Source of the DNA: a virus
Taxonomy: Duplodnaviria; Heunggongvirae; Uroviricota; Caudoviricetes
Virus record (IMG/VR): IMGVR_UViG_3300012956_000001
Coordinates: 89,730-153,729 of that record
Length of the DNA stretch: 64,000 bases
Reading direction: 5' to 3' (one strand)
Shown: piece by piece, positions 1,668-49,090 of the stretch
How the letters are laid out: each line of letters starts with the position of its first letter
Numbering within the stretch: the stretch's first letter is position 1
Program-made: the position numbers and the translations under genes
Notes under the pieces: model-generated
Seen by the model: the letters and a program-made list of their open reading frames with translations, nothing else
Told to the model about the DNA's origin: nothing
Database searches by the model: none

Positions 1668-3602
1668 ATGGCACTACGACGATTAGATAAATCTTTTGCT
1701 CCAACAAAAAAGGAAATCAAGTATCTAAATAAGACATTCGGTGAATTTCGCCAAAGTCTTATAGATTTTGCCAAGGTATATTTCCCAGATTCATATAATG
1801 ACTTCAATGAAGCATCGCCTGGAATGATGTTTATTGAAATGGCGTCGTATGTTGGTGACGTATTAGGTTACTATGTTGATACAAACTTTAGAGAAAATTT
1901 GCTACAGTATGCAAATGAAAAAGACAACATCATTTCAATGGCACAGGCATTTGGCTATCAGCCAAAGCCTACCACCGCAGCAACAACAGAAGCAGATTTC
2001 TTCCAAGTAGTTCCAGCAAAAGGATTGTCTGACAACTATGCACCAGACGAACGATTTTATCTACGACTAGCACCAAATATAGTAGTTGCTGCGGAAGATT
2101 TTGGTACTGTAAATTTTAGAACTATTGATGAACTTAACTTTGCAGATCCTACTGACAGAGAAATAACGGTCTATTCAACCGACAATTTTGATCGTCCGGT
2201 ATTTTACTTGGTGCGAAAGAAAGCTAAGGTTGTTGCCGGAACTATTAAGACATACGAATCTACGTTTACAACTGCTCAGAAATTCTCAAAGGTGGTAATC
2301 CCAGATACAAATGTTATTGACATTATTTCTGTGGTTGATTCTAGCGGCAATACATGGTATCAAGTAGATTATCTTGCACAAGATTTAGTATTCCGTAGCG
2401 AAATAAACACAGCCGCATCTACTCTTGATAGTGATTTTAGTGTTCCGCCTACATACCTGTTGAAAATCACACGAACCCCACGTCGATTTGTAGTACGATA
2501 TAACGAAAACTACGAGTGTGAACTGTCGTTTGGGTCCGGTATATTGGACGACAGTGATGAATCTATCAATCTAGAACCAAAGAAGATTGCCAACACAGAA
2601 TATCAAACAAACTTGGCATCCACCTCACTTGATCCATCGGACTTTTTATCGTCTCGGTCGTATGGTATGGCGCCTACTGGATTATTGACTATTACTTACG
2701 CTACTGGCGGTGGAATCAAGTCAAATGTTCCAATGGGAACTATAACAAAACTAGTAACCGTAGAACCGTTGAATGACATTGCATCATTTACGCCGACGGA
2801 ACTACAGCTATGGAATCAGGTCAAACAATCTATTGCAGTAAACAATTCCGATCCTGCCACGGGCGGCAAGGATGAAGATAGCATTGAAGAAATTCGTCAG
2901 AACGCTCTGGCCTTCTTCAACGCACAAAATCGATTGGTTACTGTAGAAGACTACATCGTTCGTACCTATGCTATGCCGCCGAAATACGGTGGTGCATCAA
3001 AGGTGTTTGTTACCAGAGATGAACAGATCAATAATATTCTACGAGCAACACAAGAACAACAGCCCGTGGGTGGCATCTTTGTTGAAGATACGCCAGGACC
3101 AGGCATCATAAACATGTATGTGTTAGGCTATAATCGTGACAAGAAATTAACGACGTTGAACTTGGATACCAAGGGCAATCTAAAGACGTACTTGGATCAA
3201 TACAGAATGTTAACAGATCAGGTTCGTATCTTGGATGGATTTGTTGTAAACATTGGTGTTAAGTTTAAGGTTGTTGTCTTCAAGGGATTCAACATGAATG
3301 AAGTGTTGACACGATGTATCGACAATGTAAAGCACTTCTTCTCGGTTGACCGTTGGCAGATTAATCAACCTATCTTGCTTAACGATTTGTACCTAGAAAT
3401 TGCCGCTGTTGAAGGCGTACAAAGTGTATTGTCCGTAGAAGTATTTAATCGATATAGATTCAGAGACGGTTCAGACTACAATGATTATTTGTATGATATT
3501 GGATCTGCAACAAACAATGGCATAATTTATCCGTCGCTTGATCCATGTATTTTTGAACTTAGATATCCAGATAGAGATATTATTGCGTCGGCGGTACAAT
3601 AA
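1668..3602 (+). CDS. gp6: Baseplate wedge subunit, gp6/baseplate-J-like
   Basis: 'FGEFRQSLIDFAKVYFPDSYNDFNEASPGMMFIEMASYVGDVLGYY', 'ATGGKDEDSIEEIRQNA' and 'NRLVTVEDY' match T4 gp6/J-like motifs. Confidence 0.9.
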   Translation: MALRRLDKSFAPTKKEIKYLNKTFGEFRQSLIDFAKVYFPDSYNDFNEASPGMMFIEMASYVGDVLGYYVDTNFRENLLQYANEKDNIISMAQAFGYQPKPTTAATTEADFFQVVPAKGLSDNYAPDERFYLRLAPNIVVAAEDFGTVNFRTIDELNFADPTDREITVYSTDNFDRPVFYLVRKKAKVVAGTIKTYESTFTTAQKFSKVVIPDTNVIDIISVVDSSGNTWYQVDYLAQDLVFRSEINTAASTLDSDFSVPPTYLLKITRTPRRFVVRYNENYECELSFGSGILDDSDESINLEPKKIANTEYQTNLASTSLDPSDFLSSRSYGMAPTGLLTITYATGGGIKSNVPMGTITKLVTVEPLNDIASFTPTELQLWNQVKQSIAVNNSDPATGGKDEDSIEEIRQNALAFFNAQNRLVTVEDYIVRTYAMPPKYGGASKVFVTRDEQINNILRATQEQQPVGGIFVEDTPGPGIINMYVLGYNRDKKLTTLNLDTKGNLKTYLDQYRMLTDQVRILDGFVVNIGVKFKVVVFKGFNMNEVLTRCIDNVKHFFSVDRWQINQPILLNDLYLEIAAVEGVQSVLSVEVFNRYRFRDGSDYNDYLYDIGSATNNGIIYPSLDPCIFELRYPDRDIIASAVQ

Positions 3603-7462: not shown

Positions 7463-8655
7463 TGACACCACAATTTGTCTTAGATTACATTTCGTATCTT
7501 ACAAAATTAATTGCACAGTATCCTGTAGAGGCGTATTCTCGTTATGGTAGAAGCGATACGCCTCCCATGCGATTTGTGTCTAGATTTAATCAATCTGGTG
7601 GTTGGGAAGTGTTGCATGAACATGCAATAACTGGTGAATTATTATTGATAGAATCTGTTGAGCCACCACTAGCAACAGAACCGCCGTTGCCACCGTTAGA
7701 ATTTGATACAACGCTGCCGATTGTAATGCCACAGTATGCTCCGCCCGATGGATATTTTATTCTTGCCGTGGAAAACAAAGGATTGCCGCCTGGATACGCA
7801 GCTACTACATTGGTTAATATAACCACGTTAGTTAATTCTGTTGCGGTTGCTGATGGTGGTTCGGGTTTTAGAGTACCATTCCGGGGCAGGTATGAATTAC
7901 CAGTTCGTGGCCGTACATATTATGGCGACGAACTTCTCCAGCTGCGATATGATTTTATGCCATATGGTACAATTCGTACATTAGTTGGCGACTACGAAGC
8001 AATTGGTCCGTTTACTTCGGTGGTTCCAAATTCTGGTGAGTTTCACCGTGTCGTTATTAATTGGGGCCGTGTTGATGCACCAATTCAAGAATTGCCACCA
8101 CAAGTTCCACCAGTTGTATTACCGCCGGCGCCTCCGGTAGTCATACCACCGAGACAAATTGGAATTATCGGCACACAGGCACAACCTATATTTTATCCGT
8201 CTACTACACCACAAACTCCTGCGCCGCTGCCTCTAGATCCACCATATTACAGACTAACTGCGCCGCTAGTAGATCCAAATGATACATTTAGAGCAACCAA
8301 TGTAAATCAAATGTACAGTGTTTCTTCAACGGAACCACAGTTAACGGTATACGATATTGGTCTGGCACCAAATGTGCCAACAAAAACATATCGAATCAGA
8401 AACAATACAACAAATGCTGTTTTGAAATTTACCTTTACGGTTCCTTCATTTTTGAAAATAAATGCACCGGCAATATTGAATATAAATCCACAGGAACAAG
8501 TAGTTATTAGCGTAACATTTAATGAGGCCGATGCCAAAGAGAAGTCCATCACAAAAACATATGTCTTTGATGATGTGTTACGCTGGTCTGTATCACCAAC
8601 AAATCTATCTGGTCCAGTATACGTTGCACGAAATTTACCACCGGTTAATAATTGA
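7462..8655 (+). CDS. Pro-rich virion protein with C-terminal Ig-like beta domain
   Basis: 397 aa, coupled at both ends. Contains 'PPQVPPVVLPPAPPVVIPP'. The C-terminal 'TYRIRNNT...LKFTF...INPQEQVVISVTF' looks Ig-like. Confidence 0.65.
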   Translation: MTPQFVLDYISYLTKLIAQYPVEAYSRYGRSDTPPMRFVSRFNQSGGWEVLHEHAITGELLLIESVEPPLATEPPLPPLEFDTTLPIVMPQYAPPDGYFILAVENKGLPPGYAATTLVNITTLVNSVAVADGGSGFRVPFRGRYELPVRGRTYYGDELLQLRYDFMPYGTIRTLVGDYEAIGPFTSVVPNSGEFHRVVINWGRVDAPIQELPPQVPPVVLPPAPPVVIPPRQIGIIGTQAQPIFYPSTTPQTPAPLPLDPPYYRLTAPLVDPNDTFRATNVNQMYSVSSTEPQLTVYDIGLAPNVPTKTYRIRNNTTNAVLKFTFTVPSFLKINAPAILNINPQEQVVISVTFNEADAKEKSITKTYVFDDVLRWSVSPTNLSGPVYVARNLPPVNN

Positions 8656-11600
8656 TGACTAATCCATACGAAGGATATATTCCGCTCTCTGATGCTGAAA
8701 TACAATCCTCGCAACAAAATAATAACATTCGTGACGATGCCGTTGTAGTTAGAACGGCCATCGGCGGCGTAGTATGGATATTGCCAGAATTTACAGATCT
8801 TATAACTCAATATAAGACTGGTGTGTTGACTGGTGCAGAGTCGGCGCCGGCCGGCGTAATACTTCGTGCGTTACCTAAGCCGCCTGATGTTGTAGACACA
8901 ACACCAACATACCCAGACGGATTTATACCGCCCGATCCATTTGTTCCACAGACTCCGTCACCAACACATACGCCTGGTGCGTTTTATCTGCCCATTCGTA
9001 TTGGTGTATACAATAAGCCGCCACAAACACAAAAGCGATTAAATATCAACATCAATGTACTACCATCGGTGCCAACGTTTGCAGAATCAAATGTGAACAT
9101 TGACTGGAAGCTACAGTTGCGTCCAATTCCAATCAATTTAACACAAGCAACACTTGCTGCGGCCCGTAGATTATTGGACGGTAAGGTTGAATCATATTTT
9201 GACCAAGATAGAATCAATAAGACGTTGTTGAACTTTGGTGAAGATTATCAAGCAATGATACTAAATTGGGCATATGACCCATTTGATACAACCAACAAGA
9301 CCGTGTTGGTCAAGTTGTATCAGCCATTGCCGCCTGAGGTAGAACTATTAACAGAACTTTGGATTACTAGAGAACTATCGCCGTCGTACCTTGATCAAAT
9401 CTTCGTAGTATTTGTTCCGGGCGAAGGATTGAAGTTGTATCTTCGACCACCCAACCGAGAAATCACCGTTACGTCGGTTGATGGAAATGAAGTTAACAAC
9501 GTCACTCTACAAACTCTACTAACCACCGGATCGGTAAGTAAGACCAATCTACAAGATCCTATTCTTGAAGAGTGGTTTATTACGTCGTTGGAAGGTGCAG
9601 AACTCAACATAGATTACACAAACTTTAAAAACTTTGTGTTCTACAGTTCTGCAAAGAAGAGACTAGATGCATTTAGACAGAAGCTAATTGTTCTACAAGA
9701 TTACACATCCATTCTTAGTGAACAGTCTGCATCCATTGCTGCAGCAACAACCACCGCTGGATTGGCTGGGTTTACTAGCTCTCTTGCATATGGTGGATAT
9801 GAACGAATCTCCGAACAACGAATCGACTTACTTCGATCATTTGACGGATATGAACGATTCCTTTATTACGGCAGCGGCAGTGCATACTCATCATCATTCT
9901 CCGACGACGGTGGAGAAGTAGATCAAATTTATTACATCTCAGATGCCACATGGCCAAAGATTAACGGTTCGTTGATCTCGGTTGCATCTGCATCTAATGT
10001 TGATTTGTATTCTATTGGTGGATCACAATTTACACCGGATGGTGATTATGATGGTCTGGTAAGTTGGTGGGATGCCATTACGTATGTTGCTGAAGAATAT
10101 GATCGTCAGAATCAAAACCGACTAGCAAACAATCTACCGGAATATTTGGTCAACGACGATCAATCATCAGATTTCTTAACATTTTTGGACATGATCGGCC
10201 ATCACTTTGACGTAGTAAAGTCATACGCTGATGCCATGCCTCAGATTTACAATCGAAACAATGATCCAACAGAGGGCATATCCCCGGATATGGTTTGGAA
10301 CATTGCTTCCTCATTCGGCATTGATCTTCCAAATCAATATGCAGTAAAACAACTTGTGGATTACACCATTGGACAGATTGGTGAAGTTTCGCCAACAGTA
10401 TATCGTCAAGTTGCCGCAGAAACATGGAAGCGATTCCTACACAATCAAATTTACTTGCTCAAAGCAAAGGGTACAAAGTCTGCGCTGCGTGGCTTGTTGA
10501 ACACGTATGGTGTTCTACCAACAACCATTCAGATCAGAGAATCCTCGACGCCATCGTTCTATACAAGTCAATCATATGAGTTGATAGAAGAACAAACAAA
10601 CACGTTGGATCTAACTACCGGGTCGTATGTTGCCATTCCGTTTAGTGGGTCTGGGCTACCTGCAATTCAATCAGTACAGGTTCGATTTGCTGGAACGAAT
10701 GCTCAACAAACTGTATTGTGGAATGTAGATGATCAGTGGGGTGTAAGACTTGTTCCACTATCATCAAGTTACGGTCAGGTAGCAATTGTTAATGCGGCCG
10801 GAACTAACATTGCCACATCAGACCTGTTTAAGATATACGATGGCAACTATTACACAGTTACGGTACAACGTACTGGTTCTATTGCACACCTATATACACA
10901 ACGTGCGGATGATGACGGCGATATTATAGACTCATCACACACCAGCGGAACATTAAACACTTGGCTATCTGGATCTACGTTGTATCTTGGATCTAGTGGT
11001 TCTACGTGGGGCACATCGTTTGTTGGTAACATAGATGAATTTAGATTGTGGTCTGAATATCTAACCACACAAACCATAGATCGTCACGTACAATATGCCG
11101 GTTTGTATAACGGTAATGACACGGGTTCTGCAAAGGACAACCTTCCAGTTCGATTGAGCTTCAATAAGCCACGAAATCTTGGATCGGCAACCGCATCACT
11201 ACGATTTGTACCTAACGAATCGCCGTACATTAGAGTATCCGGCCGTCCTGCAGTATATAATGAATTCTCCGCATCCGGCTTTGCAAATGAGACAGAGTAT
11301 CCGTATAGCATGACTACGGTTACACGTACCGTTCTACGATATGCACCTAACACGGGTGGAAGCCAGTTTGTAAGTAATAAGATTGTTATTGCAGATCCAG
11401 CAACACATCGATATCTTGCGGATGATAGTGGATCGGGCATTCCAATCTTGTCTCACGAAAAGAGCATGGTAACGGTTCAACAGAAGTTTGATAATGTACA
11501 AAACAATAACATCGTTGGGTTCTACTTCTCGCCAACTGATGCAATTAACGATAGCATTATCCGTACAATTGGTAATATTGACATTCAAGATTACATTGGC

Positions 11601-12980
11601 GATCCATCTGATTTGTATGAGAGTGGATACTCAAGTCTAAATGCGCTCAATGAATTGTACTGGAACAACTACGCATATGCTTACAACTATAATGCGTTTG
11701 TTGAGTTTGTAGAGAACCTATTGCAACCATTGTTTGTACAGGCAAGAAAGCTTGTTCCTGCTCGTGCCAAGTTGCTAACCGGGTTGGTAATAGAGTCGCC
11801 AATACTAGAACGTAACAAGATAAAGTGGAATCGTATTGATACGTCTGGCGCAGGAACATTTGAAGAAGATGTTACACCTACATTGTATGCGGAACCAATT
11901 TCTACTGAACCAGTAGAATTTCAGTCAGAATTTAGCTTACATGAAACGGAAATTGATCATATTGATTCTACCGCAGTAGATGCGTCGATTGATTTGTTGG
12001 AGGGTACAGTAGTTACCACCGACGAGACTACGCCGCTTGCTGAGTCGTGTGGTTATGATGCTACATATGAGTTAGACGTAAACAATTCTGTTACAAGTAC
12101 GTTTGATACGTTTACATCTGACATTGACAATTCTGATCTAAATCAAATTGAGTTTGAGTCACTCTTCTACGATGATGAAACCTCTAGATTAGACTATCTA
12201 CAAACGTTGCTACGTCGATTTAATGCTTTGAGCATAATTCAAGTACGTGATGAAGATAGACCATACTTCAATGAATTGTTACAAACATTTAGACCCGGAT
12301 CAAACATATCCGTCTTCAGCGGCATGAACAATGTCATGGATGACAACATATGGATTGATACAATTCAACCATATGTTGATTTCTTGGATATTAAGAGTAC
12401 GACATATTTCACCCAGCAGGACGGATTGGTTGCCGTTCGTACCGAACGTCAGGTTCGGGTCAATGAAGCAACCATAACTGCTGCTGGTGATTGGACTTAT
12501 GGTACCACATATGTCAGAAACCAATATGTTACGCAATCATTGCAAACCGGCGCAGCAGCCGATGGCAATGGATATGAATATGTGTGTGTTACGCCGTTAG
12601 CGTCCGGTAGCTTTATTAGTTACAACCCACCGGCGCTAGATACAGAAAATTGGCGTAAGATGCGGTATACTACAGTACCAGCAATAAATCTACGGGTGGC
12701 TACAAATGTCAGTGGATCTATTCAGTTGGCAGCATCTGGAAGTGGATATGTTCCGTTTACGGGATACGATCCAAAGCATTATAGGTTCCATCGAGACACC
12801 AGATTGGGTACATTACGTAGAATTTGGTATGGTTGTAAGCAAACAGACGCCACCACCATTGATGGTGGCCCAGCAGTAGAAGTTATACCATCCGCAGGAG
12901 ATGTTTTGGTCGTTTCCACGGGTGCCGAACCAATTCAGCGACCAAATGACAATTCTGGACCCATACTTGGTGTTCGATAA
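8655..12980 (+). CDS. Large baseplate wedge protein (gp7-like) with LamG/ConA-like domain
   Basis: 1441 aa; ATG at 8655 overlaps the upstream TGA. 'LLKAKGTKSALRGLLNTYG' is a wedge/tail-P2-I-like motif. 'FVGNIDEFRLWSEYLT' is a LamG signature. Confidence 0.75.
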   Translation: MTNPYEGYIPLSDAEIQSSQQNNNIRDDAVVVRTAIGGVVWILPEFTDLITQYKTGVLTGAESAPAGVILRALPKPPDVVDTTPTYPDGFIPPDPFVPQTPSPTHTPGAFYLPIRIGVYNKPPQTQKRLNININVLPSVPTFAESNVNIDWKLQLRPIPINLTQATLAAARRLLDGKVESYFDQDRINKTLLNFGEDYQAMILNWAYDPFDTTNKTVLVKLYQPLPPEVELLTELWITRELSPSYLDQIFVVFVPGEGLKLYLRPPNREITVTSVDGNEVNNVTLQTLLTTGSVSKTNLQDPILEEWFITSLEGAELNIDYTNFKNFVFYSSAKKRLDAFRQKLIVLQDYTSILSEQSASIAAATTTAGLAGFTSSLAYGGYERISEQRIDLLRSFDGYERFLYYGSGSAYSSSFSDDGGEVDQIYYISDATWPKINGSLISVASASNVDLYSIGGSQFTPDGDYDGLVSWWDAITYVAEEYDRQNQNRLANNLPEYLVNDDQSSDFLTFLDMIGHHFDVVKSYADAMPQIYNRNNDPTEGISPDMVWNIASSFGIDLPNQYAVKQLVDYTIGQIGEVSPTVYRQVAAETWKRFLHNQIYLLKAKGTKSALRGLLNTYGVLPTTIQIRESSTPSFYTSQSYELIEEQTNTLDLTTGSYVAIPFSGSGLPAIQSVQVRFAGTNAQQTVLWNVDDQWGVRLVPLSSSYGQVAIVNAAGTNIATSDLFKIYDGNYYTVTVQRTGSIAHLYTQRADDDGDIIDSSHTSGTLNTWLSGSTLYLGSSGSTWGTSFVGNIDEFRLWSEYLTTQTIDRHVQYAGLYNGNDTGSAKDNLPVRLSFNKPRNLGSATASLRFVPNESPYIRVSGRPAVYNEFSASGFANETEYPYSMTTVTRTVLRYAPNTGGSQFVSNKIVIADPATHRYLADDSGSGIPILSHEKSMVTVQQKFDNVQNNNIVGFYFSPTDAINDSIIRTIGNIDIQDYIGDPSDLYESGYSSLNALNELYWNNYAYAYNYNAFVEFVENLLQPLFVQARKLVPARAKLLTGLVIESPILERNKIKWNRIDTSGAGTFEEDVTPTLYAEPISTEPVEFQSEFSLHETEIDHIDSTAVDASIDLLEGTVVTTDETTPLAESCGYDATYELDVNNSVTSTFDTFTSDIDNSDLNQIEFESLFYDDETSRLDYLQTLLRRFNALSIIQVRDEDRPYFNELLQTFRPGSNISVFSGMNNVMDDNIWIDTIQPYVDFLDIKSTTYFTQQDGLVAVRTERQVRVNEATITAAGDWTYGTTYVRNQYVTQSLQTGAAADGNGYEYVCVTPLASGSFISYNPPALDTENWRKMRYTTVPAINLRVATNVSGSIQLAASGSGYVPFTGYDPKHYRFHRDTRLGTLRRIWYGCKQTDATTIDGGPAVEVIPSAGDVLVVSTGAEPIQRPNDNSGPILGVR

Positions 12981-13030: not shown

Positions 13031-13666
13031 ATGGCATATTTGGACAATAGTACAACAACAATAGATGCAATTCTTACAAAAAAGGGACGCGAACTGCTTT
13101 CCAAGGGCGCAGGCTTTCAAATTACACAATTTGCATTGGCCGACGACGAAGTAGATTATGGCTTGTATACCACCAGCCACCCATTGGGTTCTAGCTTTTA
13201 CGGCAGCATAATTGAAAATATGCCACTGGTGGAGGCTTCCCCTGATGAAACACAGGTAATGCGATATAAGTTGGTAACGCTACCGCGTGGAACTAAGCAA
13301 ATTCCAATTATTTCACTTGGATTTGATAGTATCACCATCACAGCTGGTCAGGCAAATGCAATTCCAGTTCGACCAACCACCACAAACGGACTCAATGGTG
13401 CAGGATTTGGCTACACGGCCATTCTGTACAATGCAGACTCCGCTGTATTGGTTGGCACTGGTCTGCCAGCAAACGTCGCACCTACCGCACCGGCCTTCTT
13501 GGGTGACGCCGGTACGGCAAATGCTGTAGTATCACAAGGTCTTGAGTTTACACTTACGCCGAAGGATGTTGCCGCACAAGTAACAACTCAATTGACTATT
13601 ATTGGCAATCAGACTGGCGCAACAATTACCATCCCGGTCATCGTCAAGCCAAAGCCAACCACATAA
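13031..13666 (+). CDS. Conserved baseplate/tail structural protein
   Basis: SD GGAG. 'MAYLDNSTTTIDAILTKKGRELL...ITQFALADDEVDY' N-terminus recalled from large-myophage structural proteins. Confidence 0.7.
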   Translation: MAYLDNSTTTIDAILTKKGRELLSKGAGFQITQFALADDEVDYGLYTTSHPLGSSFYGSIIENMPLVEASPDETQVMRYKLVTLPRGTKQIPIISLGFDSITITAGQANAIPVRPTTTNGLNGAGFGYTAILYNADSAVLVGTGLPANVAPTAPAFLGDAGTANAVVSQGLEFTLTPKDVAAQVTTQLTIIGNQTGATITIPVIVKPKPTT

Positions 13667-13683
13667 TTTAGGAGTCTTGACTG

Positions 13684-14754
13684 ATGAGTACCTATAAGCG
13701 TTTTGATGAAGATGATTTTGTACCTGGCAATCCTACAGAAGTTACTGTAGGCTTGTGGAGTGGAGACACGGGCAGTTTAGCCAGCTTCTTTACTTCCTCG
13801 GCACAGGCATCTTCCTCGTTAAGCGGACAATATTACTGGGATGTGTACCAGGCTAATCCAAATACAGGCGGAACGTTGCCAGTACCAGAAGTACAGTTCT
13901 CTGTATCGTATGGTAATCGTAGTGGCGGCGGCGCACCAACACTTGCACAAAGTGACAACGCCACGCTGTCCACACAGGCAGTATATTCCCAGTATCGTAA
14001 TTTGCTGTTAGATCCAAGTGATACACAGTTCACATTTGATGGATCATACAATAGTGATGAGATTTACGTTATTAACATTGCTCGCGGTCGTTTGAAGGAA
14101 CGAATGGACCCGGGCAATTGGTTGCTAACGCTATCTGGATCAAATGGCACACGAACCTTTATTGATGATTCAGGCCAGACACTAGATCCAACCGTTGGTA
14201 AGGCAGGTTCAGTGTTCAACATCGTATCTGGTAACTTGACTGGCGCCTCTGGTTCGACTATTGCAGTATCGCAGTCGGCTGTTTGGGGTGGATATGGATT
14301 GTTCTATCCATCGCTGGGCATTATGGTATTGAATCCTAATGCCGTAAGTGAATCAGTTGGTTTTGTTGCTGGTGGATTCTATACATCTGGATCAACGGCC
14401 TTTGCAACATCCACGGGCTCGAGCGTACAGCATCAGTACAACCACGTTGGTTTGTATCACTCAATCCGACTTGGTGGAGACTTCCAGGCTCGTTCTGCAG
14501 AAACCATCTCCAGCACCAATTACTTTGTACGCGTTCGTAACAAGGACTTTAACTACTCTAATAACCCAACATTCTATGATGAAACCAATGGAACGTTGAT
14601 TTACAATTCGTTCATCAAAGATCCTCGTGTATATCTGACCACGGTTGGCATGTATAATGATCAAAATGAATGTTTGGCTGTTGCTAAGATGAGCCGTCCT
14701 ACGTTGAAGAGCTTCGATAGAGAACTATTGATTCGTGTACGACTCGATTGGTAA
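13684..14754 (+). CDS. Baseplate/tail-collar-like structural protein
   Basis: SD AGGAG. C-terminal 'TVGMYNDQNECLAVAKMSRP...IRVRLDW' resembles tail-collar/fibre-attachment domains. Confidence 0.65.
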   Translation: MSTYKRFDEDDFVPGNPTEVTVGLWSGDTGSLASFFTSSAQASSSLSGQYYWDVYQANPNTGGTLPVPEVQFSVSYGNRSGGGAPTLAQSDNATLSTQAVYSQYRNLLLDPSDTQFTFDGSYNSDEIYVINIARGRLKERMDPGNWLLTLSGSNGTRTFIDDSGQTLDPTVGKAGSVFNIVSGNLTGASGSTIAVSQSAVWGGYGLFYPSLGIMVLNPNAVSESVGFVAGGFYTSGSTAFATSTGSSVQHQYNHVGLYHSIRLGGDFQARSAETISSTNYFVRVRNKDFNYSNNPTFYDETNGTLIYNSFIKDPRVYLTTVGMYNDQNECLAVAKMSRPTLKSFDRELLIRVRLDW

Positions 14755-14775
14755 GAAACACATAGGAGATAGGTA

Positions 14776-15663
14776 ATGAAGGTCATAACGCCCGACAATT
14801 ACCTAATTCGACCGTTTCGAACAAATAAAACGTGGAATTTTACATACACGTATTTAGGGGGCAGTAATCCGAATCAAGTTCGTATAGACCTTGCGGCGGA
14901 GCCCCCAGCAGATTGGGATACATTTTTAACAAGTTCTGAAGGTCAAAATGATGATGGTATCTACACACGTACATTATATGCGTCTGTACAACATACCTTT
15001 TATACTGGCAGTAGAACTGACATAACTGGTTCCAGATATATCCCCATAGGTGTCCGTGAGAAGCAATTCTATCCAACCGGATCTCAGTTTTATGTAATCA
15101 ACATAGAACAGCAGACATTTGGTGAAGGAATTCGACCGGGCACCTTTGAGCTTTCTTCTGGTGTATCCACTGCAAGTATCGTAGACGATGGATTAGGACG
15201 ATTGGTATCAACAAGTAACCCAACTGCGGTTGTTGGTAATATATTTTATGGATCTGGTATTGCTGTCGTTAAGCAAGATACCGGGTCGTACAGCAGTTCC
15301 TTGGTTACGGATCGTGGATTGTATTTGGCCACAGGATCTGCAATAGAGGTTCAGTACGCGGGCATTCATACTATTTATGAGCATCAAGTCATTTGTACGA
15401 TTGAACCGGGTGAGTTGAATTTTTCTACAAATCCAACAATGCGTTCACGGACGTTAAGTGGTAGTCTGTCAGGAATGACATTTACAGGAAGTACGGGTTC
15501 TATTGCTACAGATTTAGTATTTAGTGGTACGCTAGAACCGTACTTTACGACAGTAGGATTGTTTAACGATGTAGGTCAAATGGTCGCCATCGCTAAATTC
15601 CCAAGAGCTATTAGACGGGTTACAAACACACAACAAACCGTCATTGTGCGATTTGACGCATAA
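14776..15663 (+). CDS. Paralogous baseplate/tail-collar-like structural protein
   Basis: SD AGGAG. C-terminal 'TVGLFNDVGQMVAIAKFPRA...VIVRFDA' aligns with the end of the preceding gene. Confidence 0.65.
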   Translation: MKVITPDNYLIRPFRTNKTWNFTYTYLGGSNPNQVRIDLAAEPPADWDTFLTSSEGQNDDGIYTRTLYASVQHTFYTGSRTDITGSRYIPIGVREKQFYPTGSQFYVINIEQQTFGEGIRPGTFELSSGVSTASIVDDGLGRLVSTSNPTAVVGNIFYGSGIAVVKQDTGSYSSSLVTDRGLYLATGSAIEVQYAGIHTIYEHQVICTIEPGELNFSTNPTMRSRTLSGSLSGMTFTGSTGSIATDLVFSGTLEPYFTTVGLFNDVGQMVAIAKFPRAIRRVTNTQQTVIVRFDA

Positions 15664-15675
15664 CGGAGATACAGC

Positions 15676-16002
15676 ATGAGTCAGTTAGTCGATATCTACA
15701 ATCGTTCACAAAAGCTACGAGCAGTTCAGGCAAAGCAAATTCCTGAATTGGCTGTAGACTATTTTGATCAACAACATCAATTCCAAGATGGTTGGACCAA
15801 CAAGCAGAAGCGCGGCGATCCAACTTCGTGGAAGGAAAACGCTCTAAAGTATTATGACACAGAGCTGACCGATATGGTCACACCAGAAAGCTTTATTCGC
15901 CACGAACAGGGCATTCCGCTAAATCAGTGGAACCCAACACAGAAGTACTTTGTTCCGGGTCGTTCACCTGGCGAAACAGACATCGGCAGCGGCAATCGAT
16001 AA
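15676..16002 (+). CDS. Hypothetical protein
   Basis: 108-aa ORF with SD GGAG, filling the gap between flanking genes. Confidence 0.7.
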   Translation: MSQLVDIYNRSQKLRAVQAKQIPELAVDYFDQQHQFQDGWTNKQKRGDPTSWKENALKYYDTELTDMVTPESFIRHEQGIPLNQWNPTQKYFVPGRSPGETDIGSGNR

Positions 16003-16011: not shown

Positions 16012-17592
16012 ATGATCCGACTATATAACCTATTATTTGAAAGCACTGAGGAGTCTGCTCTAGATTATCTAGGCAGACTCATTCAGCAAAGTCCATTTGC
16101 TGGGAAGGTATTCCTGGCCGGCGGAGCTGTGCGTGATGAAATTTTAGGTCAACCAGTCAAGGACATTGATATTGTTGTTGCTATGCCCGATGGCGGTATT
16201 CAATTTGCAAATTGGATTACAAAAAAGGTCGGTGCATACAAGGATGGTGCCAATCCAGTAGTATATCCACGATTTGGCACCGCAAAGTTTAACCTTCGTG
16301 GTGTAACCCATAACGGTATTGATCTTTCGGGCATCGACATCGAATCTGTTATGACTCGTGGTGAAAAATATGAAACAGGATCTAGAAAGCCTGAAGTTGT
16401 ATATGCTGACCTAAAGGCCGATGCATTCCGCCGAGACCTTACGGTTAACTCACTGTACAAGGATTTGGTTACTGGTGAGATCATTGACCTAACTGGTCGA
16501 GGTCGAGCTGATATAGAAAATGGAATTGTTCGGACTCCATTAGATCCATCTGAAACGTTTGCTGATGATCCACTTCGTATGTTGCGAGCCATTCGTTTTG
16601 CAGTAAAGTACAATTGGAAAATGCCTATGTCTTTGATAAAGGCATTAAAGCAAAATGCATCGTCGCTAACAAACATCTCGTCAGAACGTATTCAGGACGA
16701 ACTTAACAAAATATTGATGACCAACAATCCAGATAAGGGACTCAAACTCTTATCGTATACCGGATTGATGAAACACATTATTCCTGAGTTGGATGCAACT
16801 CGTGGTGTAACACAAAATGCACATCACAAGGATGACGTATTTAATCACATTCTTGAAGTCGTAAAGAACACTCCAAAGAATTTGCAGGCACGACTTGGTG
16901 CATTGTTCCATGATATTGCAAAGCCACAAACAAAGTCAATGGACGAAACGGGCAAGGTTCACTTCTACGGTCACGAAGATGCTGGCGCCGAGGTTGCTAT
17001 TGAGGCAATGAAGCGTCTTCGATATCCGAATGAAATGACAAATACGGTATCGACGCTGGTCAAACACCACATGCGATTGAAGGGCGGTGGTCCAGATGGA
17101 TCTAAGCTATCCGACAAGGCGCTTCGTAAGTTTATGGCAGAAATTGGACCGGATCTAGAGCCAGCGTTGATGTTAATGCACGCAGATAACATCTCACATG
17201 CGGCCGCATCGTCTATGCCAAATCAGATAGAACGGTTGTATGATCGAATGAAGAATCTAAAACAGCCAGTTGCTGGTCCACCTAAGTTACCTGTGAATGG
17301 TAACGACATCATCAAGATGCTTGGAATTAAGCCCGGTCCTATATTACGTGACTTGCTTCAGGCCGTACAAGATGCGTGGTATGAAAATCCAGATATTGAT
17401 GCAGCTACAGCAATGGGTGTCGTTAAGAAGCAGTATGAGAAATTATCTGGTAGTGATACATCAGATACCGACATCATGAATCAAACGGTTAAGAACCCAG
17501 AAACCGGCAATGACATTCTAATCCGCACGGCATTACAATACGATGATCGACACCCAGCAAAACAAGCAGCACTAAAACGAATCAAAAAATAA
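16012..17592 (+). CDS. cca: Class II tRNA nucleotidyltransferase (CCA-adding/poly(A) polymerase family) with HD domain and C-terminal NPET module
   Basis: Motif A 'AGGAVRDEILGQPVKDIDI', flexible loop 'RGEKYETGSRKP', 'RRDLTVNSL', motif D 'DDPLRMLRAIRF', 'ISSERIQDELNKIL', HD 'LFHDIAKP'. Confidence 0.92.
   Translation: MIRLYNLLFESTEESALDYLGRLIQQSPFAGKVFLAGGAVRDEILGQPVKDIDIVVAMPDGGIQFANWITKKVGAYKDGANPVVYPRFGTAKFNLRGVTHNGIDLSGIDIESVMTRGEKYETGSRKPEVVYADLKADAFRRDLTVNSLYKDLVTGEIIDLTGRGRADIENGIVRTPLDPSETFADDPLRMLRAIRFAVKYNWKMPMSLIKALKQNASSLTNISSERIQDELNKILMTNNPDKGLKLLSYTGLMKHIIPELDATRGVTQNAHHKDDVFNHILEVVKNTPKNLQARLGALFHDIAKPQTKSMDETGKVHFYGHEDAGAEVAIEAMKRLRYPNEMTNTVSTLVKHHMRLKGGGPDGSKLSDKALRKFMAEIGPDLEPALMLMHADNISHAAASSMPNQIERLYDRMKNLKQPVAGPPKLPVNGNDIIKMLGIKPGPILRDLLQAVQDAWYENPDIDAATAMGVVKKQYEKLSGSDTSDTDIMNQTVKNPETGNDILIRTALQYDDRHPAKQAALKRIKK
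17470..17589 (+). repeat. NPET protein module, copy 1 (C-terminus of CCA enzyme)
   Basis: DIMNQTVKNPETGNDILIRTALQYDDRHPAKQAALKRIKK; coordinates approximate. Confidence 0.85.
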
Positions 17593-17619
17593 ACCCGCCT
17601 TACGGCGGGTTTTTTATTT
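17591..17619. terminator. Bidirectional intrinsic terminator between convergent genes
   Basis: AAACCCGCC-TTAC-GGCGGGTTT stem with an A-tract upstream and a T-tract downstream. Both convergent stop codons (17590-92 and 17614-16) lie at its edges. Confidence 0.9.
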
Positions 17620-18348
17620 GTACTTGTCTACTATTTGTTGTGCTAGTTTGTGAGCTGGATGATCTTCGTCATATTTAAGAGCAGTACTTATCAATATTTT
17701 ATTGTCTGTATTTGGATTTACTATTGTTTGACTCAAAATCTTAGACATATCTTTTTGATTAGATTGGGTTGATTTCGGTTGGTGTCCAACCGATGCCAAA
17801 AACTTGTTAACTGCATCTTGTGGCATTTCACCAAGATCTTTATATGGTGCGGGAGTAACAAAATGCTCATCGGTAAGATTTGCTAGTGATTTGCCGGCAG
17901 CATCATTGTCAATCACAGCAATAGTATGCTTATTTAGAATAGCAAACCATGACTTCAAAACTTTTGGATTGTTTCCCAATACGGCGATTACCGGAAGACC
18001 AGCGTTGTGAATTTTCACCGCATCAAAAATGCCTTCGGTAACAAATAGATTTGGGTTGTCCGCATCAATAAATTCAGTACCCCAAACCGCTAACTTTGCG
18101 GTTTTTTCGCTTTCTTTCGTAACCCATGTAAAGTATTTAGCTGACAATGAGTTGGTATGATCTTTCTTGTCGCCCATTGGATTGTATCGCTGATATCCAA
18201 CCAATTGACCGGACAAGTTATATAGCAAGAATGTTGCAAGTCCGTTTTCTTTATCTAAGATAACATGTATGTTATCTGGATCAAGTCCACGTTCTCGTAA
18301 GTGAGCTTCTATGCTATTAATTTGTGATGGGGTTAGTGAATCAGACAT
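17614..18348 (-). CDS. Toprim-domain (primase-core-like) protein lacking a Zn finger, with C-terminal NPET module
   Basis: 'FVTEGIFDAVKI...VIAVLG...IAVIDNDAAG' are the Toprim E and DxD motifs. SD GGAG on the minus strand. The only substantial minus-strand gene in the window. Confidence 0.8.
   Translation of the reverse strand: MSDSLTPSQINSIEAHLRERGLDPDNIHVILDKENGLATFLLYNLSGQLVGYQRYNPMGDKKDHTNSLSAKYFTWVTKESEKTAKLAVWGTEFIDADNPNLFVTEGIFDAVKIHNAGLPVIAVLGNNPKVLKSWFAILNKHTIAVIDNDAAGKSLANLTDEHFVTPAPYKDLGEMPQDAVNKFLASVGHQPKSTQSNQKDMSKILSQTIVNPNTDNKILISTALKYDEDHPAHKLAQQIVDKYK
17617..17742 (-). repeat. NPET protein module, copy 2 (C-terminus of Toprim protein)
   Basis: KILSQTIVNPNTDNKILISTALKYDEDHPAHKLAQQIVDKYK. 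Confidence 0.85.
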
Positions 18349-18921: not shown

Positions 18922-19836
18922 ATGTCATATGAACTAACTAGTCTATTAGATTCCATACTTGGAACCCACCACAAACATGCCCACGGTGAATTTTACTGGT
19001 CGTGTCCATTCTGCCATCATGCAAAACCAAAATTAGCAATTAATGTAACCAAGGGTGCATGGCACTGCTGGGTGTGTAATGCGTCTGGCCGTAGACTCGT
19101 ATCGCTGTTTAGAAAGTTGGATTGTTCCCGCGACCAACTCGCACAGCTGGCAAAGATTCTTGATGAAGACGTATATCAGCCCAATACAACCGATCATGAA
19201 GTGGTACATCTCAATCTGCCACAAGAATTCAAACCGTTCACCGTGCCAACTAAACTTATAGAATACAAGCGAGCCCTACAATATATTACACAACGGGGAA
19301 TCACCGCGTCCGACATCATGCGGTATCAGATTGGATATTGTTCCGATGGCAACTATGCCGGTCGGATCATCATTCCATCATTTGATGCTACGGGTAAATT
19401 GAATTACTTTGTGGGTCGGTCATTTTACGAACCTACTACAATGAAGTACAAGAATCCACCAGTTAGCAAAAATGTGATTGGGTTTGATATGCACATTAAC
19501 TGGAAGTATCCCATCGTATTGTGTGAGGGTGTATACGATGCTATTGCAATTAAACGAAATGCAATTCCATTGTTGGGTAAGACGATGCCTGGTAAATTGG
19601 CAGAGAAGATTGTAATTGAAAATGTACAACACATTTACCTTGCACTTGATGCGGATGCTTTACGACAGACCGCCAGAATGGCTTCTGAATTGATTCGTGA
19701 GGGTCGGGCGGTGTATGTTGTAGATTTAGATGGTAAAGATCCTAGTGAGATTGGATTCACTCGAATGTCCGAGTTGATTAAAAATGCAAAGCCACTTGGT
19801 TTTGCAGAACTTGTTAAATTACGAGCTACTGCATGA
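18922..19836 (+). CDS. DNA primase (Zn finger + Toprim; gp61/DnaG-like)
   Basis: 'CPFCHH...WHCWVC' Zn-binding domain, 'RIIIPSFD...YFVGRSF', 'LCEGVYDA', 'LALDADA'. Confidence 0.9.
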   Translation: MSYELTSLLDSILGTHHKHAHGEFYWSCPFCHHAKPKLAINVTKGAWHCWVCNASGRRLVSLFRKLDCSRDQLAQLAKILDEDVYQPNTTDHEVVHLNLPQEFKPFTVPTKLIEYKRALQYITQRGITASDIMRYQIGYCSDGNYAGRIIIPSFDATGKLNYFVGRSFYEPTTMKYKNPPVSKNVIGFDMHINWKYPIVLCEGVYDAIAIKRNAIPLLGKTMPGKLAEKIVIENVQHIYLALDADALRQTARMASELIREGRAVYVVDLDGKDPSEIGFTRMSELIKNAKPLGFAELVKLRATA

Positions 19837-31512: not shown

Positions 31513-31569
31513 ATTCAGCATCAATGCTGAATTAGGGACTACTTATTTGAGTAGTCCCCTTTCTTTTGG
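31512..31569 (+). terminator. Two tandem perfect 9-bp hairpins; the second is followed by a T-tract and contains TACTTAT (31540-31546)
   Basis: aattcagca-tcaa-tgctgaatt (31512-31533) and gggactact-tatttg-agtagtccc (31535-31558), then ctttctttt. Confidence 0.7.
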
Positions 31570-31580
31570 TGAATTGTACT

Positions 31581-34500
31581 ATGGATTTATTATTTGAAGC
31601 AAACCGCTTGGCGGGTGAATTGGCAAACGAACTTCGTAGATCGTTGATATCAGAGGCGGAAGTCAAGTCTGATAAACGAATCATTGTTGCGTACTCTGGC
31701 CACTTTCAGCCGTTTCACCAAGGACATTTCAAGATTTACAAGACATTGGTCAAGAAGTTTGGCCGTGATAATGTATACATCACAACAACGAATGAAACCG
31801 ATGAACTAGAAAATCCAATGACCTATGCTGATAAGAAGCAAGTCATTATGAAAATGTTTGATATTGAAGACGGTAAGTTTCAAGAAGTTCAAAATCCATA
31901 TGTTCCTGCCGAACTACTACAAAAGTTCAATCCAAAGGCCACATCATTCGTTACAGTTGTATCTGATGAAGATGCCGCGGTATTGTCAAAGAGCAAATAC
32001 TTCCATCCGTATGTTGAGTCACCATCACTACAAACATATGACAAGGCCGCATACTATCTGACGGTCCCAGAACTTCGTGCTACTATTGGTGGTCAGCACC
32101 TTACTGGTCCACAAATTATGCAAGTACTTGGGTCATCAAAGACATCTGACGCTATGAAAGAAAAGATCTTCCAGGCATTATACGGCAAGTCCGATGCTGG
32201 TATCTTGGATATTATTTCTAACAAGGCAAAGGATGGTGCCGAAAAAGTTGATGGAAAGTTTACCAAAACCCAAGCAACTGGACAGGCAAACAAGACATCA
32301 TACAAAAAGACAGATGCTGGTGGACAAGATACTGATGCAGATGAAGATGGTAAGTCCGACAAGACGCCGCCTATGCAACGAATGATTGTCAACCCCGACA
32401 CAGGTCGTGAGATCAAGGTACAATCTGCATTGAAGTATCCTCGTTGGAAGCCTGTATACAAGAAGGCAGAGAAGTTCTTAAAGGCCACAGGCATTGATCG
32501 TAAGGATCGTGTTAAGGAGCCCGAAGTTAACCAGCGATATCGTGCACGCGAAAAGAACATGAAGAAGGACGAGTTAGCAATATATCTTGGTGATATGTTG
32601 TCTGAACACCTACACAGCCAGTTTAGCCGAGATGGGGTGACATTAAATGTGCCCGGACTTGGCGAGGTGTTACTTAGGCTCGGACAAAACAGAACCGACG
32701 AAGTAACTCGATATCCCAAGTCAACATTACTAACCGAAGGTGCACCAAAGAGTCATATTCAACATCCATATGATGATGTTGAGATGTCGTTTAGTGACCT
32801 TAAGGGATTGGTATCACAGGCACTAACTGGTAATCTTGAGAGTGCAACAGAAAAAACTGACGGTCAGAACATTTTGTTTACCGTACGTGACGGTAAGGTA
32901 GTGTTTGCTCGCAATACACAACATACCAAAGGTAATGGTGCGGCAGCGATGGATGCCCAAGAATTCAAAGACTTTTTTGCCAAGCATGGCGATCAAGTAT
33001 CTGATTCATTTGGCCGGGCCGCCCAAGACGTACAATCAGCCGTCGATGCACTACCAGATGCAATGAAAAAGGCAGTATTCAATAACGGATCTCGGTTCGC
33101 ATCAGCCGAAATTCTAAACTCGCAGTTAGCAAATACCATTCCATATAACACAAATGTTATCATGTTGTTGAGTGTTCGGGACTATGATCCTGAAACCGGC
33201 AATCCTACCAGTATGGACATTAATGCTGCTGATGCATTAGCCGATGTTATGTCTCGTGCAGGTACAGACAAGCAGCCAACATACAAAATCACGGGCAAAA
33301 ACAAAATACAGTTTGGCACAAGTGATACAGATCGCCAAAATGCACAAAAATACACAGATGCGATCACAGAGTTACAAGCACGATATAATCTAACAGATGA
33401 CAACACCATCGGTGATTTCTTGGCAGGTCAATGGTCTGAACTTATCGATGCACAAAATGCTTGGACTCCTGAAGAGAAGGAATTGCTTCTACGTCGATTT
33501 GTTGCGGGCGATAAATCCTTTGGTGTTCGAAGCATCAAAGATCCAGCAAAGAAAGAACTGTTTTATGAGCTAGAAAAGCCTAGCAAAGAATTGCAAGCAA
33601 AGTTCATTCGATCTATCAAATCGATTGTTTTAAACGTTGGTGCTGATGCACTAAATCGTGCCACCAATCTACTTGGTCAATCTGATGGTACCCGAGAGAA
33701 GTTAAAGGCTAAGTTTAAAGATGCGGTAGAGGCCATCAAAAAGAGTGGCCAGCCTGAGTACATTGATAAGACTAAGAAGGAACTTGATCACCTAAAGGAC
33801 ATTGGAATTGACAAAATTTCTCCAGCCGAAGGCATTGTGTTCACTCACAATGGACAATTGTACAAGTTTACTGGTGCGTTTGCCCCGGTCAATCAAATTG
33901 TTAGCATTAACACGTACAAGTTAAATCCAGCCGCACGAAGTGCCGATGATGAAGTCGGAGGAGAATCGCCTACATCAGCTGCTGGTACACAACCTAAGCG
34001 TGCCCCAGTAGTCGTATATCCCGGCCGATTCCAGCCGTTCCATGCCGGTCACTACTCTGTCTACAAACACCTAGTAGACAAATATGGCAAAGAAAACGTA
34101 TATATTGGCACCAGTGATAAAACAGATGGCGCCAAGTCACCATTTAACTTTAACGAAAAGCAAAGTATTATGTCACGAATGTTCGGCATTCCTACAGATA
34201 AAATTGTTCAAGTTAAAAACCCATATGCACCAAAAGAAATTACAGATCCGTTCCCACAGGACACGCCGTTCATTACAGCGCTCAGTGAAAAAGAAGCAGA
34301 ACGATTGAGTGTAGGCAATTATTACAAGCCATTGCCGCAAGATGGCAATTCTCTTGGTAACTACAGAGATGTTGGATACTTTACTGTTGTGCCCGACTTT
34401 GAAGCGGATGTTGATGGACAAAACATCTCTGGCACCGCAATCCGATCTGTATTGAGTGATCCTCAACGATCAGTTGAAGACAAGAAGAAAATGTTTGCTA

Positions 34501-38743: not shown

Positions 38744-39240
38744 CCACGGCACAAATACCCAGACATCTGATGCCACAGATTCCAAAGAACAAACTTTCTG
38801 AGTTTTGTTCCTATTTAGAAACCAAGAATATTACTAGCAAAACTAGTAAACGACCCGTCAAATGGTTGGTTCCGGTACAAAAGCACGTTAACCAAGATAA
38901 GGTAGACAATATTATGTCAGACCCATCGGTTATTGATGCTTCTCCGATTATTGTAACTGCCGAGGGCTATATTGTAGATGGTCACCACAGATGGATTGCT
39001 GCTAAAAAATTGGGTATTACTGAGATAAACTGTATAGTTTGTGACTGTCCCCTAAAGGAATTTCTAAAACTGGCGCATGATTTTGATCATAGTTTTGTAA
39101 AGTCTGTTAGTGAACTTACTACTTATGGTAGATTAGGTGTACTGTTAGAATCTCGTAGGGACATTGACCGCCGCATAAATTCTAAGTTACGTGAATACAT
39201 CAGTCGTGAAATCAAAAATATACTAGAGATAAACTCATGA
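38731..39240 (+). CDS. ParB/Sulfiredoxin-domain protein
   Basis: 'LVPVQ...PIIVTAEGYIVDGHHRWIAA' is the ParB/Srx catalytic motif. Confidence 0.8.
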   Translation: MAPITTAQIPRHLMPQIPKNKLSEFCSYLETKNITSKTSKRPVKWLVPVQKHVNQDKVDNIMSDPSVIDASPIIVTAEGYIVDGHHRWIAAKKLGITEINCIVCDCPLKEFLKLAHDFDHSFVKSVSELTTYGRLGVLLESRRDIDRRINSKLREYISREIKNILEINS

Positions 39241-39545
39241 TTAAGCTTTCCACGCTTCTTACAGAAGCTATGAACAAAATTACCACAGTTCAGGCGGCCA
39301 AGCTGTTTAAGTCCTTGAAACTTGATAAAACCGACGTAAAGATTAAAGAGTTTTACTTAGGTATGAATGTTGAGCTAGAACATCAGAATGTAACTCAGGG
39401 TGATGTTAAGAAGACCGCGTTATTGGTATTGGCGCATCTTAAAGAATCACCAGATTACTACACCAACCTTCAAAAAGTTGAAGAACCGGCCGCAGAGATG
39501 GGTGTAAGTCAGTCGCCTGCACCACAAGCGCCTGGTCAGTATTAA
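39237..39545 (+). CDS. DUF5661-like small protein with capsid-targeting-like N-terminus
   Basis: 'GMNVELEH...AHLKESPDYYTNL'; N-terminus MIKLSTLLTE. Confidence 0.7.
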   Translation: MIKLSTLLTEAMNKITTVQAAKLFKSLKLDKTDVKIKEFYLGMNVELEHQNVTQGDVKKTALLVLAHLKESPDYYTNLQKVEEPAAEMGVSQSPAPQAPGQY

Positions 39546-43736: not shown

Positions 43737-43979
43737 ATGTCTAAGATAAAGCTATCCGAACTTCGCAATATCATCCGTGAAGAATTAATCAATACCCTAG
43801 TTGAATTTGAAACTAAGGATATGCCAAACGGAGCAACATGGCGTACTGCTGGTAAGGGCTGGGCCGCAAAAAATTCAAGTGGTGAGACTAACTATTGGTA
43901 TGGTAAGGACGAAGCAAAAAACAAAAAAAGTGCCGATGATTGGGCGCGTGGTTCTTCTAAAACCGCAACTACGAAGTAA
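43737..43979 (+). CDS. Small putative internal head protein
   Basis: MSKIKLSELRNIIREELINTLVE| followed by a short Trp/Gly-rich beta module. Confidence 0.7.
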   Translation: MSKIKLSELRNIIREELINTLVEFETKDMPNGATWRTAGKGWAAKNSSGETNYWYGKDEAKNKKSADDWARGSSKTATTK

Positions 43980-49065: not shown

Positions 49066-49090
49066 AGTTGTTACCTTTGTGGAGTTTTGT

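Follow-up and report, generated by a model that had tools for sequence, protein, structure and literature searches.

Phage proteins carried in the capsid act before phage gene expression, and to our knowledge there are few described examples, namely the internal proteins and Alt of T4, the Dar proteins of P1 and the virion RNA polymerases. In T4, the first 10 residues of the internal protein IPIII are enough to direct it to the capsid; of these, residues 4 and 7 are important in targeting and residues 8 and 10 in processing (PMC9026906). The propeptides lost from gp24 and gp21 comprise the first 10 and the first nine residues, respectively (PMC9958956), and Alt is cut at ITE-6 and LTE-619 (PMC5694885). 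The internal proteins of T-even phages are poorly conserved, and related phages carry other basic proteins with leaders resembling the capsid-targeting sequence (CTS; PMC9026906). Packaging and injection have also been predicted for polyvalent proteins (Iyer et al., 2017; PMC5512222), in a paper from which the word CCA is absent. Here we describe a gene in a 64,000-nt stretch (the window) of a single 217,729-bp phage contig, IMG/VR record IMGVR_UViG_3300012956_000001. The open reading frame (ORF) at 16012-17592 on the plus strand encodes a 526-residue protein that is very probably a CCA-type tRNA nucleotidyltransferase with an HD domain. It starts with a decapeptide resembling the T4 CTS and ends in a mini-domain, NPET, that recurs in other proteins of the genome. 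The best explanation as a whole, to which we assign a probability of about 0.52, is that a working CCA-adding/HD enzyme is packaged, trimmed and delivered, and rebuilds the CCA ends of tRNAs.

The N-terminal leader and T4 capsid targeting

The protein begins MIRLYNLLFE. These ten codons (16012-16041, plus strand) are read as a propeptide, predicted from model confidence, conservation and a T4-like layout to be cut off after Glu10, which would leave Ser11 as the mature start. Like the ten-residue N-terminal peptides of the gp21-processed IP and Alt cargo of T4, the leader has hydrophobic residues at positions 4, 7 and 8, Glu at position 10 and a small residue at position 11, a layout that is also common to the gp24 propeptide. 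In the T4 record (a slash marking the cut), IPII and IPIII start MKTYQEFIAE/A, gp24 MAKINELLRE/S, gp21 MNEPQLLIE/T and gp22 MLKEQLIAE/A, and gp23 is cut at residue 65 in ...SFLTE/A. As in T4, a Peptidase_S77 protease and a Gp23-family capsid protein occur together in this phage, and their own N-termini are of the same kind. The prohead protease of the T4 gp21 family, the predicted remover of the leader (43148-43735, plus strand; Peptidase_S77, E-value 1e-27; phrog_207, 1e-51), starts MPQLLVE/Y. The major capsid protein of the Gp23 family (47380-48984, plus strand; Pfam Gp23, E-value 7e-73; phrog_138) has ...NSLLTE/S at its N-terminus, the putative scaffold has ...DNLLKE/A, and a DUF5661 protein encoded beside the portal gene (39237-39545, plus strand; Pfam DUF5661, E-value 6e-14) begins MIKLSTLLTE. 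The original prediction had likened the decapeptide to the LL-x-E leaders of the capsid, scaffold and DUF5661 proteins, and the starts of those proteins were confirmed. The decapeptide looks like a prohead-protease propeptide, and the comparison extends to T4 itself, where the CTS of IPII and IPIII and the propeptides of gp24, gp21 and gp22 match.

Genome-wide, LL.E ending at residues 9-14 is found in 5 genes, as against ~0.74 expected from the proteome-wide frequency, and the full leader in only two, the CCA gene (position-weight score 28.9) and the DUF5661 gene (19.2). Internal [L/I]-x-E sites in the CCA enzyme number 3, compared with ~4.7 expected, a difference that is not informative about depletion. 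In the AlphaFold2 model, residues 1-10 have a mean predicted local distance difference test score (pLDDT) of 51, as against more than 90 for the enzyme body. Separately, three head-module proteins without annotation (43737-43979, 44642-45382 and 42403-43146) have ...IIRE or ...LIRE at residues 11-15, their N-termini being MSKIKLSELRNIIRE, MKKLELRQIIRE and MSTALRKLIRE, respectively. All three probably belong to the prohead core and carry protease sites.

The leader is a feature of a whole clade of enzymes. Most of the 120 nearest protein clusters (52-77% identity) begin M-I-[KR]-L-x-x-L-L-x-E, with conservation at positions 2, 4, 7, 8 and 10, and among 80 further IMG/VR loci the leader is seen down to ~44% identity. 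Of 47 leader training sequences, selected for a hydrophobic pair at positions 7-8 and Glu at position 10, 40 have I at position 2 and 39 have L at position 4. The most distant homologues have no leader, and their GGxVRD motif lies ~8-10 residues nearer the protein start. In a tree built from core columns alone, with the leader and NPET left out, the leader is general within a 167-row clade (support 98), to which these leaderless homologues do not belong. The leader keeps its place at the extreme N-terminus even where 100-330 residues have been inserted behind it (L044, L047, L054, L065, P0080, P0097 and P0100).

The leader is also found on unrelated genes. Its position-weight matrix picks out 89 ORFs at threshold in related loci, many of them adjoining the CCA gene and unrelated to it. 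In one locus (L022:7434-14470), eight consecutive unrelated genes are headed by the leader, and arrays of MIKLKxLLxE genes are present in L023, L048, L016, L010, L025/L026, L027, L031, L044 and L047, mostly between capsid and neck genes. The 61 leader-bearing neighbours other than CCA genes represent 17 Pfam families, including GNATs, lysozymes, a 2H phosphoesterase/Acb1-like protein, phosphoribosyltransferase, NUDIX, kinase, ART-PolyVal and M78 peptidase. This is the kind of set that might be expected of effectors acting on arrival, and the arrays are candidates for a large and variable complement of head cargo. The presence of the leader on unrelated, fast-changing genes is reminiscent of the CTS-like leaders on the variable internal proteins of T-even phages (PMC9026906).

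Among related contigs, the Leu codons of the leader vary freely and the DNA upstream is not conserved, and the constraint is therefore on the peptide. The same two observations led us to reject a mobile DNA cassette, consisting of a promoter and first codons, as the cause of its conservation. Likewise, we do not regard the leader as belonging to the enzyme fold, given its low pLDDT, its absence in distant homologues and its presence on unrelated proteins.

More elaborate arrangements are seen in fusion proteins. A 1351-residue protein (L058:5867-9919) combines NUDIX, a cell-wall hydrolase (Hydrolase_2), ART-PolyVal and CCA-HD. In LR756501, a 735-kb uncultured phage (L086:694-4395), a 1233-residue chain starts MITKFKLFE and has a C-terminal CCA-HD part 50% identical to that of the window; this chain also contains a segment resembling deaminases, and DPYGEE(D/R)W recurs several times in it as a linker. 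A phage-lysozyme domain is found in clusters P0074 and P0093, and an N-terminal GNAT domain in other clusters. The CCA-domain homologues in L058 and LR756501 fit the definition of polyvalent proteins, that is, several unrelated effector domains in one chain, whereas the window protein, one enzyme to which two short add-ons are attached, falls outside it.

The idea of packaging is strengthened by these patterns, since the leader is clade-wide, stays N-terminal in fusions, heads unrelated genes, matches the T4 CTS and propeptides, and is accompanied by polyvalent fusions. Packaging is the best-supported reading, although analogy and comparative patterns are its whole basis. We consider it somewhat better than an even bet that the N-terminus is a T4-CTS-like propeptide by which the protein enters the prohead, and that the protein is then cut after Glu10 and reaches the next host together with the DNA. 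In this mechanism, a structural-side transcription unit ends with the gene for the enzyme, which would be synthesized bearing a 10-residue propeptide like those that direct T4 proteins to the capsid. The propeptide would carry the enzyme into the assembling prohead core, and the gp21-type (S77) prohead protease would cut the propeptide off after Glu10. The mature protein, Ser11-Lys526 with NPET still attached, would stay in the capsid until the next infection and then exit together with the DNA. Its targeting, cleavage, packaging in the virion and ejection are all proposed here by analogy with T4. An enzyme as cargo has a counterpart in Alt, an ADP-ribosyltransferase; the cargo here would be an enzyme of RNA-end repair or maturation, a kind for which we found no report from any virion. 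The two systems differ in that the leader sequence itself is not that of the T4 CTS, the C-terminal NPET module has no T4 counterpart, and the system described here is known from genes alone.

The CCA-type enzyme

The ORF matches tRNA nucleotidyltransferase phrog_2244 in PHROGs (E-value 9e-65) and four Pfam families above gathering scores: PolyA_pol at residues 34-174, PolyA_pol_RNAbd at 209-262, HD at 291-394 and tRNA_NucTran2_2 at 331-455. The class II nucleotidyltransferase head domain (16111-16533; PolyA_pol, E-value 4e-20), with GGAVRD, DIDIV, the flexible loop, RRD and DLTGRG, is followed by the neck or RNA-binding region (16636-16797; PolyA_pol_RNAbd, E-value 3e-18), which includes motif E, ERIQDELNK, and has motif D, DDPLR (residues 185-189), just upstream. 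Next comes the HD/HDIG metal-dependent phosphohydrolase domain (16825-17199; Pfam HD, 38.1 bits vs a cut-off of 22), which also passes the NCBIfam HDIG model TIGR00277 (36.1 vs a cut-off of 27.6); all three lie on the plus strand. Across 83 homologues, the motif A residues G37, G38, R41 and D42 (in GGAVRD, 37-42) and D51 and D53 (in DIDIV, 51-55) are invariant, and RRD (140-142), DLTGRG (159-164), DDPLR, ERIQDELNK (225-233) and the HD residues H279, H300-D301, H321, H353 and D392 are invariant or nearly so. The flexible loop RGEKYETGSRKP at residues 116-127 has R116, E118, Y120, R125, K126 and P127 invariant in the same set, and aligns with the matching loops of the solved cca1 and cca2 tRNA nucleotidyltransferases (9ns2 and 9ns4), which are also the best solved-structure sequence matches of the protein (E-values 6e-34 and 1.5e-33). 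In class II enzymes, this loop, R-x-E-x-Y-x-x-x-S-R-x-P, is linked to the addition of A76. The motifs read directly, their conservation and the Pfam and PHROGs matches bear out the earlier claim that the class II nucleotidyltransferase motifs and the HD domain are intact.

The AlphaFold2 model, built on an alignment, has a mean pLDDT of 92.9 and the head-neck-body-tail fold of class II enzymes, as judged by Foldseek comparison with solved CCA- or CC-adding enzymes (3wfr, 9kma, 1miv, 5hc9 and 4x4w; E-values 1e-14 to 1e-16, probability 1.00). The top NCBIfam model is the CCA equivalog TIGR02692, matched over its full length at 255.4 bits, below its curated cut-off of 438.8. Other CCA equivalogs are below cut-off too (NF009814, 138 vs 290; NF008137, 133 vs 451), and the models of PcnB poly(A) polymerase are far weaker than the CCA model (TIGR01942, 114 bits vs a cut-off of 305.65; NF008634, 87 vs 702). 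The protein belongs to a divergent viral branch below the equivalog cut-offs, and is therefore filed at the family level rather than as an equivalog. The CCA profile match spans residues 18-462, with the leader and the C-terminal extension outside.

The enzyme shares class II motifs A-E and a post-neck HD/HDIG domain with bacterial HD-domain CCA enzymes (the E. coli Cca type, NF008137, and the actinobacterial type, TIGR02692), but is ~60-110 residues longer owing to its leader, linker and NPET module. It shares family and domain order (head-neck-HD-tail) with the phrog_2244 CCA enzymes of jumbo and tRNA-rich phages, the more distant of which lack the leader and NPET add-ons. In E. coli Cca, the HD domain has 2',3'-cyclic phosphodiesterase, 2'-nucleotidase and phosphatase activities. 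For the phage protein, CCA addition and all other activities are predicted from its sequence.

The NPET module

The tail of the enzyme is joined by a Ser/Asp/Thr-rich flexible linker (17449-17481, plus strand; pLDDT 59 for the block 481-490) to the C-terminal NPET mini-domain (17470-17589, plus strand; profile match, E-value 1.6e-25), which consists of 40 residues forming a beta-hairpin and two helices. Residues 491-526 of the CCA model make up a confident hairpin-plus-two-helix unit, and NPET folded alone has a pLDDT of 93.3. The protein had been said to end in an NPET tag, and a profile search of the whole 217.7-kb genome confirms that the module is real, with exactly 6 copies in 4 proteins, one of them the CCA C-terminus. 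The second protein, encoded convergently with the CCA gene (17614-18348, minus strand), is a primase-like Toprim protein with no Zn finger and no leader (phrog_849, E-value 2e-41; Pfam Toprim_2) and has a C-terminal NPET at 17626-17745 (E-value 1e-16). The third is a large multi-enzyme protein (31566-35810, plus strand) with three NPET modules by profile and a CTP_transf_like domain, which starts MDLLFE from an internal ATG at 31581. The fourth is small, and its gene (49079-49477, plus strand; NPET at 49142-49261, E-value 1.5e-25) comes directly after that of the capsid protein.

Several side observations concern these genes. A complete primase is encoded at 18922-19836, near the Toprim-only gene. 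In the small post-capsid protein, NPET is near the N-terminus; homologous small proteins (P0151, P0154 and P0155) start MKLSELLxRLEED, and in L003 and L005 the first 60 residues of this protein align with the C-terminus of the CCA enzyme. A second NPET gene, a 420-residue open frame, lies immediately 5' of the CCA gene in two relatives (L007:5967-7226 and L009:9041-10300), and these pairs echo the paired NPET genes of the window.

Outside this genome, the six-copy profile retrieves at least 473 cluster representatives among 1.84 billion proteins, in which NPET is N-terminal, C-terminal or internal. NPET has no Pfam family and no usable match in the ESM Atlas, and one module searched against deposited phages by tblastn, at E-values up to 1, gave no match. 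Comparison of its fold with solved structures gave a best Foldseek E-value of 1.4 and a best VIA-align Z of 3.6, to parts of the penicillin-binding-protein fold, and no fold is assigned. In 98 proteins scanned, the partners of NPET are cytidylyltransferase-like nucleotidyltransferases, type IB topoisomerase, Mom, AAA_33/Zeta-like kinases and Toprim, and further HAD phosphatases, ADP-ribosyltransferase, S-adenosylmethionine (SAM) lyase, GNAT and ParB_N.

NPET may be a packaging tag. It is quite possible, instead, that the CCA protein is targeted and cut as proposed and that NPET is a small domain binding nucleic acids or a partner. In the infected cell, it would then tether various enzymes to one shared substrate or hub, for instance DNA, tRNA or a protein of phage or host origin. 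Consistent with this, NPET is found with or without a leader: when the 120 nearest CCA clusters are sorted by a simple motif test on the N-terminus, 41 have both, 30 NPET only, 42 the leader only and 7 neither, and leaderless NPET proteins include the neighbouring Toprim protein. The variable placement of the module, the net positive charge on five of the six copies in the genome, and the many partners that act on nucleic acids (Topo IB, Mom, Toprim, ParB_N and the nucleotidyltransferases) all point the same way. However, some partners (such as SAM lyase, ADP-ribosyltransferase, GNAT and HAD) need no nucleic-acid binding, the capsid gene is directly followed by an NPET gene, and nothing about function can be read from the fold. 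About one third of NPET proteins have [hydrophobic][hydrophobic]-x-E within the first 16 residues, as against 24 of 308 genes of the genome within the first 14. The phylogeny also bears on the question. NPET-bearing enzymes form one 74-row clade (support 99), which contains the only sub-clade (25 rows, support 99) to have lost the leader stably and as a whole, as if NPET substitutes for the leader; this fits an NPET able to replace the leader, although it is one event and no proof. A bolder extension, which we regard as doubtful, is that leader and NPET are two interchangeable loading or ejection tags, and that the CCA enzyme, the 31566-35810 protein and the Toprim protein are packaged as an RNA-repair kit.

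Gene context, tRNAs and the role of the enzyme

A rightward run of genes ends in the CCA gene, which lies 9 nt past the preceding stop and is separated from the convergent Toprim gene by a bidirectional intrinsic terminator (17591-17612; 9-bp stem, 6 G-C pairs, T-runs on both strands). The original prediction placed it at the end of a baseplate operon. Its position as last gene and the terminator uphold the first part of this, but the four genes directly upstream (13031-16002) match no family in PHROGs, Pfam or NCBIfam, and the label "baseplate" therefore rests on genes further upstream, encoding a gp6-like baseplate wedge (1668-3602) and a Laminin_G_3 protein (8652-12980). T4 Alt-family genes are reportedly also associated with baseplate genes, an arrangement read as reflecting late synthesis and head packaging (PMC5512222), and the CCA gene resembles them in adjoining baseplate-side genes. 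Two of the four upstream genes, 13684-14754 and 14776-15663, encode weak paralogues in their C-terminal halves (25-29% cross-matches in L006), and the former matches only unnamed viral clusters in the ESM Atlas. The arrangement of the window is shared by one relative only, L006. In relatives with recognisable neighbours, the CCA gene is mostly found between capsid and neck genes, co-directionally in L003, L005, L013, L014, L017, L019, L024, L039 and L042; elsewhere, its neighbour is the gene for a baseplate wedge protein (L029) or for the large terminase (L062 and L063).

Judged from its genes, the source is a distant T4-like jumbo phage. The contig encodes a Gp23-family capsid, a Peptidase_S77 protease, portal, large terminase, sheath and a gp6-like baseplate wedge, and among cultured phages the capsid protein is closest to those of Microcystis phage Mel-JY01 and Flavobacterium phage immuto (54% identity), followed by that of Rhodothermus phage RM378. 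A megablast search of the region against deposited phages gave no match. ARAGORN finds 59 tRNA genes in the whole 217.7-kb genome, with CCA encoded in none of the listed 3' tails, making them an obvious substrate for the enzyme, packaged or otherwise; such richness in tRNA genes needing CCA addition is shared with phages carrying phrog_2244 enzymes. One of the 59 is an amber-reading tRNA with a CTA anticodon (ARAGORN; G000:C1:77592-77667, outside the window).

Maturing these tRNAs may be the main or only job of the enzyme, and it would be sufficient for an ordinary cytoplasmic CCA enzyme that is never packaged. In that case, the decapeptide would have another function common to a set of accessory genes, for example in translation initiation efficiency, as a helix binding a partner or membrane, or in turnover control. 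CCA enzymes are common in tRNA-rich and jumbo phages, the enzyme having tblastn matches in 455 phage records, and where those of jumbo phages have been discussed, it is in terms of RNA repair, and packaging goes unmentioned (PMC7824862). The A/T-rich start region (ATG ATT AAA CTT AAA) is of a kind often favoured at gene starts. Nevertheless, we regard a purely cytoplasmic enzyme as the less likely reading. Translation efficiency leaves unexplained the invariant Glu10, the Leu/Ile residues at positions 4, 7 and 8, which are encoded by many codons, and the small residue 11. Nor does this alternative explain the match to the cleavage sites of the phage's own capsid, scaffold-position and protease proteins, or the fusions with cell-wall hydrolase and ART-PolyVal.

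Several further observations, together with the literature just cited, weigh against packaging. First, with the full leader on only two genes here, the within-genome statistics are thin. Second, many relatives have the CCA gene and the leader-bearing genes around it on the strand opposite to that of the adjoining neck and capsid genes. Co-transcription with structural genes is thus not general, and this arrangement also favours a cytoplasmic role. In the window, the T4 late-promoter motif TATAAATA occurs 2 times (4.6 expected by chance), in neither case near the CCA gene, and there is no obvious ribosome-binding site 5' of this gene. Third, the mature protein of ~58 kDa is far above the T4 internal proteins in size, though near Alt, and the 25-row sub-clade keeps the enzyme without the leader. 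Fourth, the CCA relatives are uncultured contigs throughout, and a weak search of Mel-JY01 and immuto for the enzyme and the NPET profile gave no match. In Friunavirus, CCA genes lie within a block of nucleotide-metabolism and replication genes (PMC8092837), described phage CCA enzymes are viewed as cytoplasmic ones of RNA repair or nucleotide metabolism (PMC7824862, PMC8092837), and a full-text literature search returned no report of a CCA enzyme in a virion.

That the protein is not a full CCA-adding enzyme but a poly(A) polymerase, or adds CC or A only, is highly improbable: class II nucleotide specificity is not safely readable from sequence, homologues carry the source label "poly(A) polymerase", every curated CCA cut-off is missed, and the top fold matches 3wfo-3wfs, which we take to be the Aquifex CC-adding enzyme, are titled "tRNA processing enzyme" under the depositor name "Poly A polymerase", but the full-length TIGR02692 score of 255 bits exceeds the 114 bits of PcnB, the closest solved-structure sequences are cca1 and cca2, the A76-linked loop is present and invariant in the protein and its homologues, and a second tRNA nucleotidyltransferase gene was found in none of the window ORFs scanned, the rest of the genome not having been searched.

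If delivered as we propose, the enzyme would add or rebuild the 3' CCA of the phage's own tRNAs in the new cell, and could also restore host or phage tRNAs with trimmed 3' ends or leftover phosphate. That it pre-empts defences that clip CCA ends is speculation, made plausible by the existence of tRNA-targeting defences and by an HD domain that could heal phosphate ends. If the idea of an RNA-repair kit were true, tRNA 3' ends and other RNA damage would be mended before any phage gene is expressed, tRNA-targeting defences would be blunted and the 59 CCA-less tRNAs would be primed.

A packaged CCA-adding/HD enzyme would, if real, be the first RNA-end repair activity delivered in this way, and would link phage tRNA arsenals with tRNA-targeting bacterial immunity. 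NPET, an uncatalogued domain, occurs in 473 protein clusters or more. In a widespread group of uncultured T4-like phages, a large and fast-changing set of enzymes is marked by one short leader, and this offers a sequence-based rule by which candidates for injected effectors can be picked out of metagenomes.

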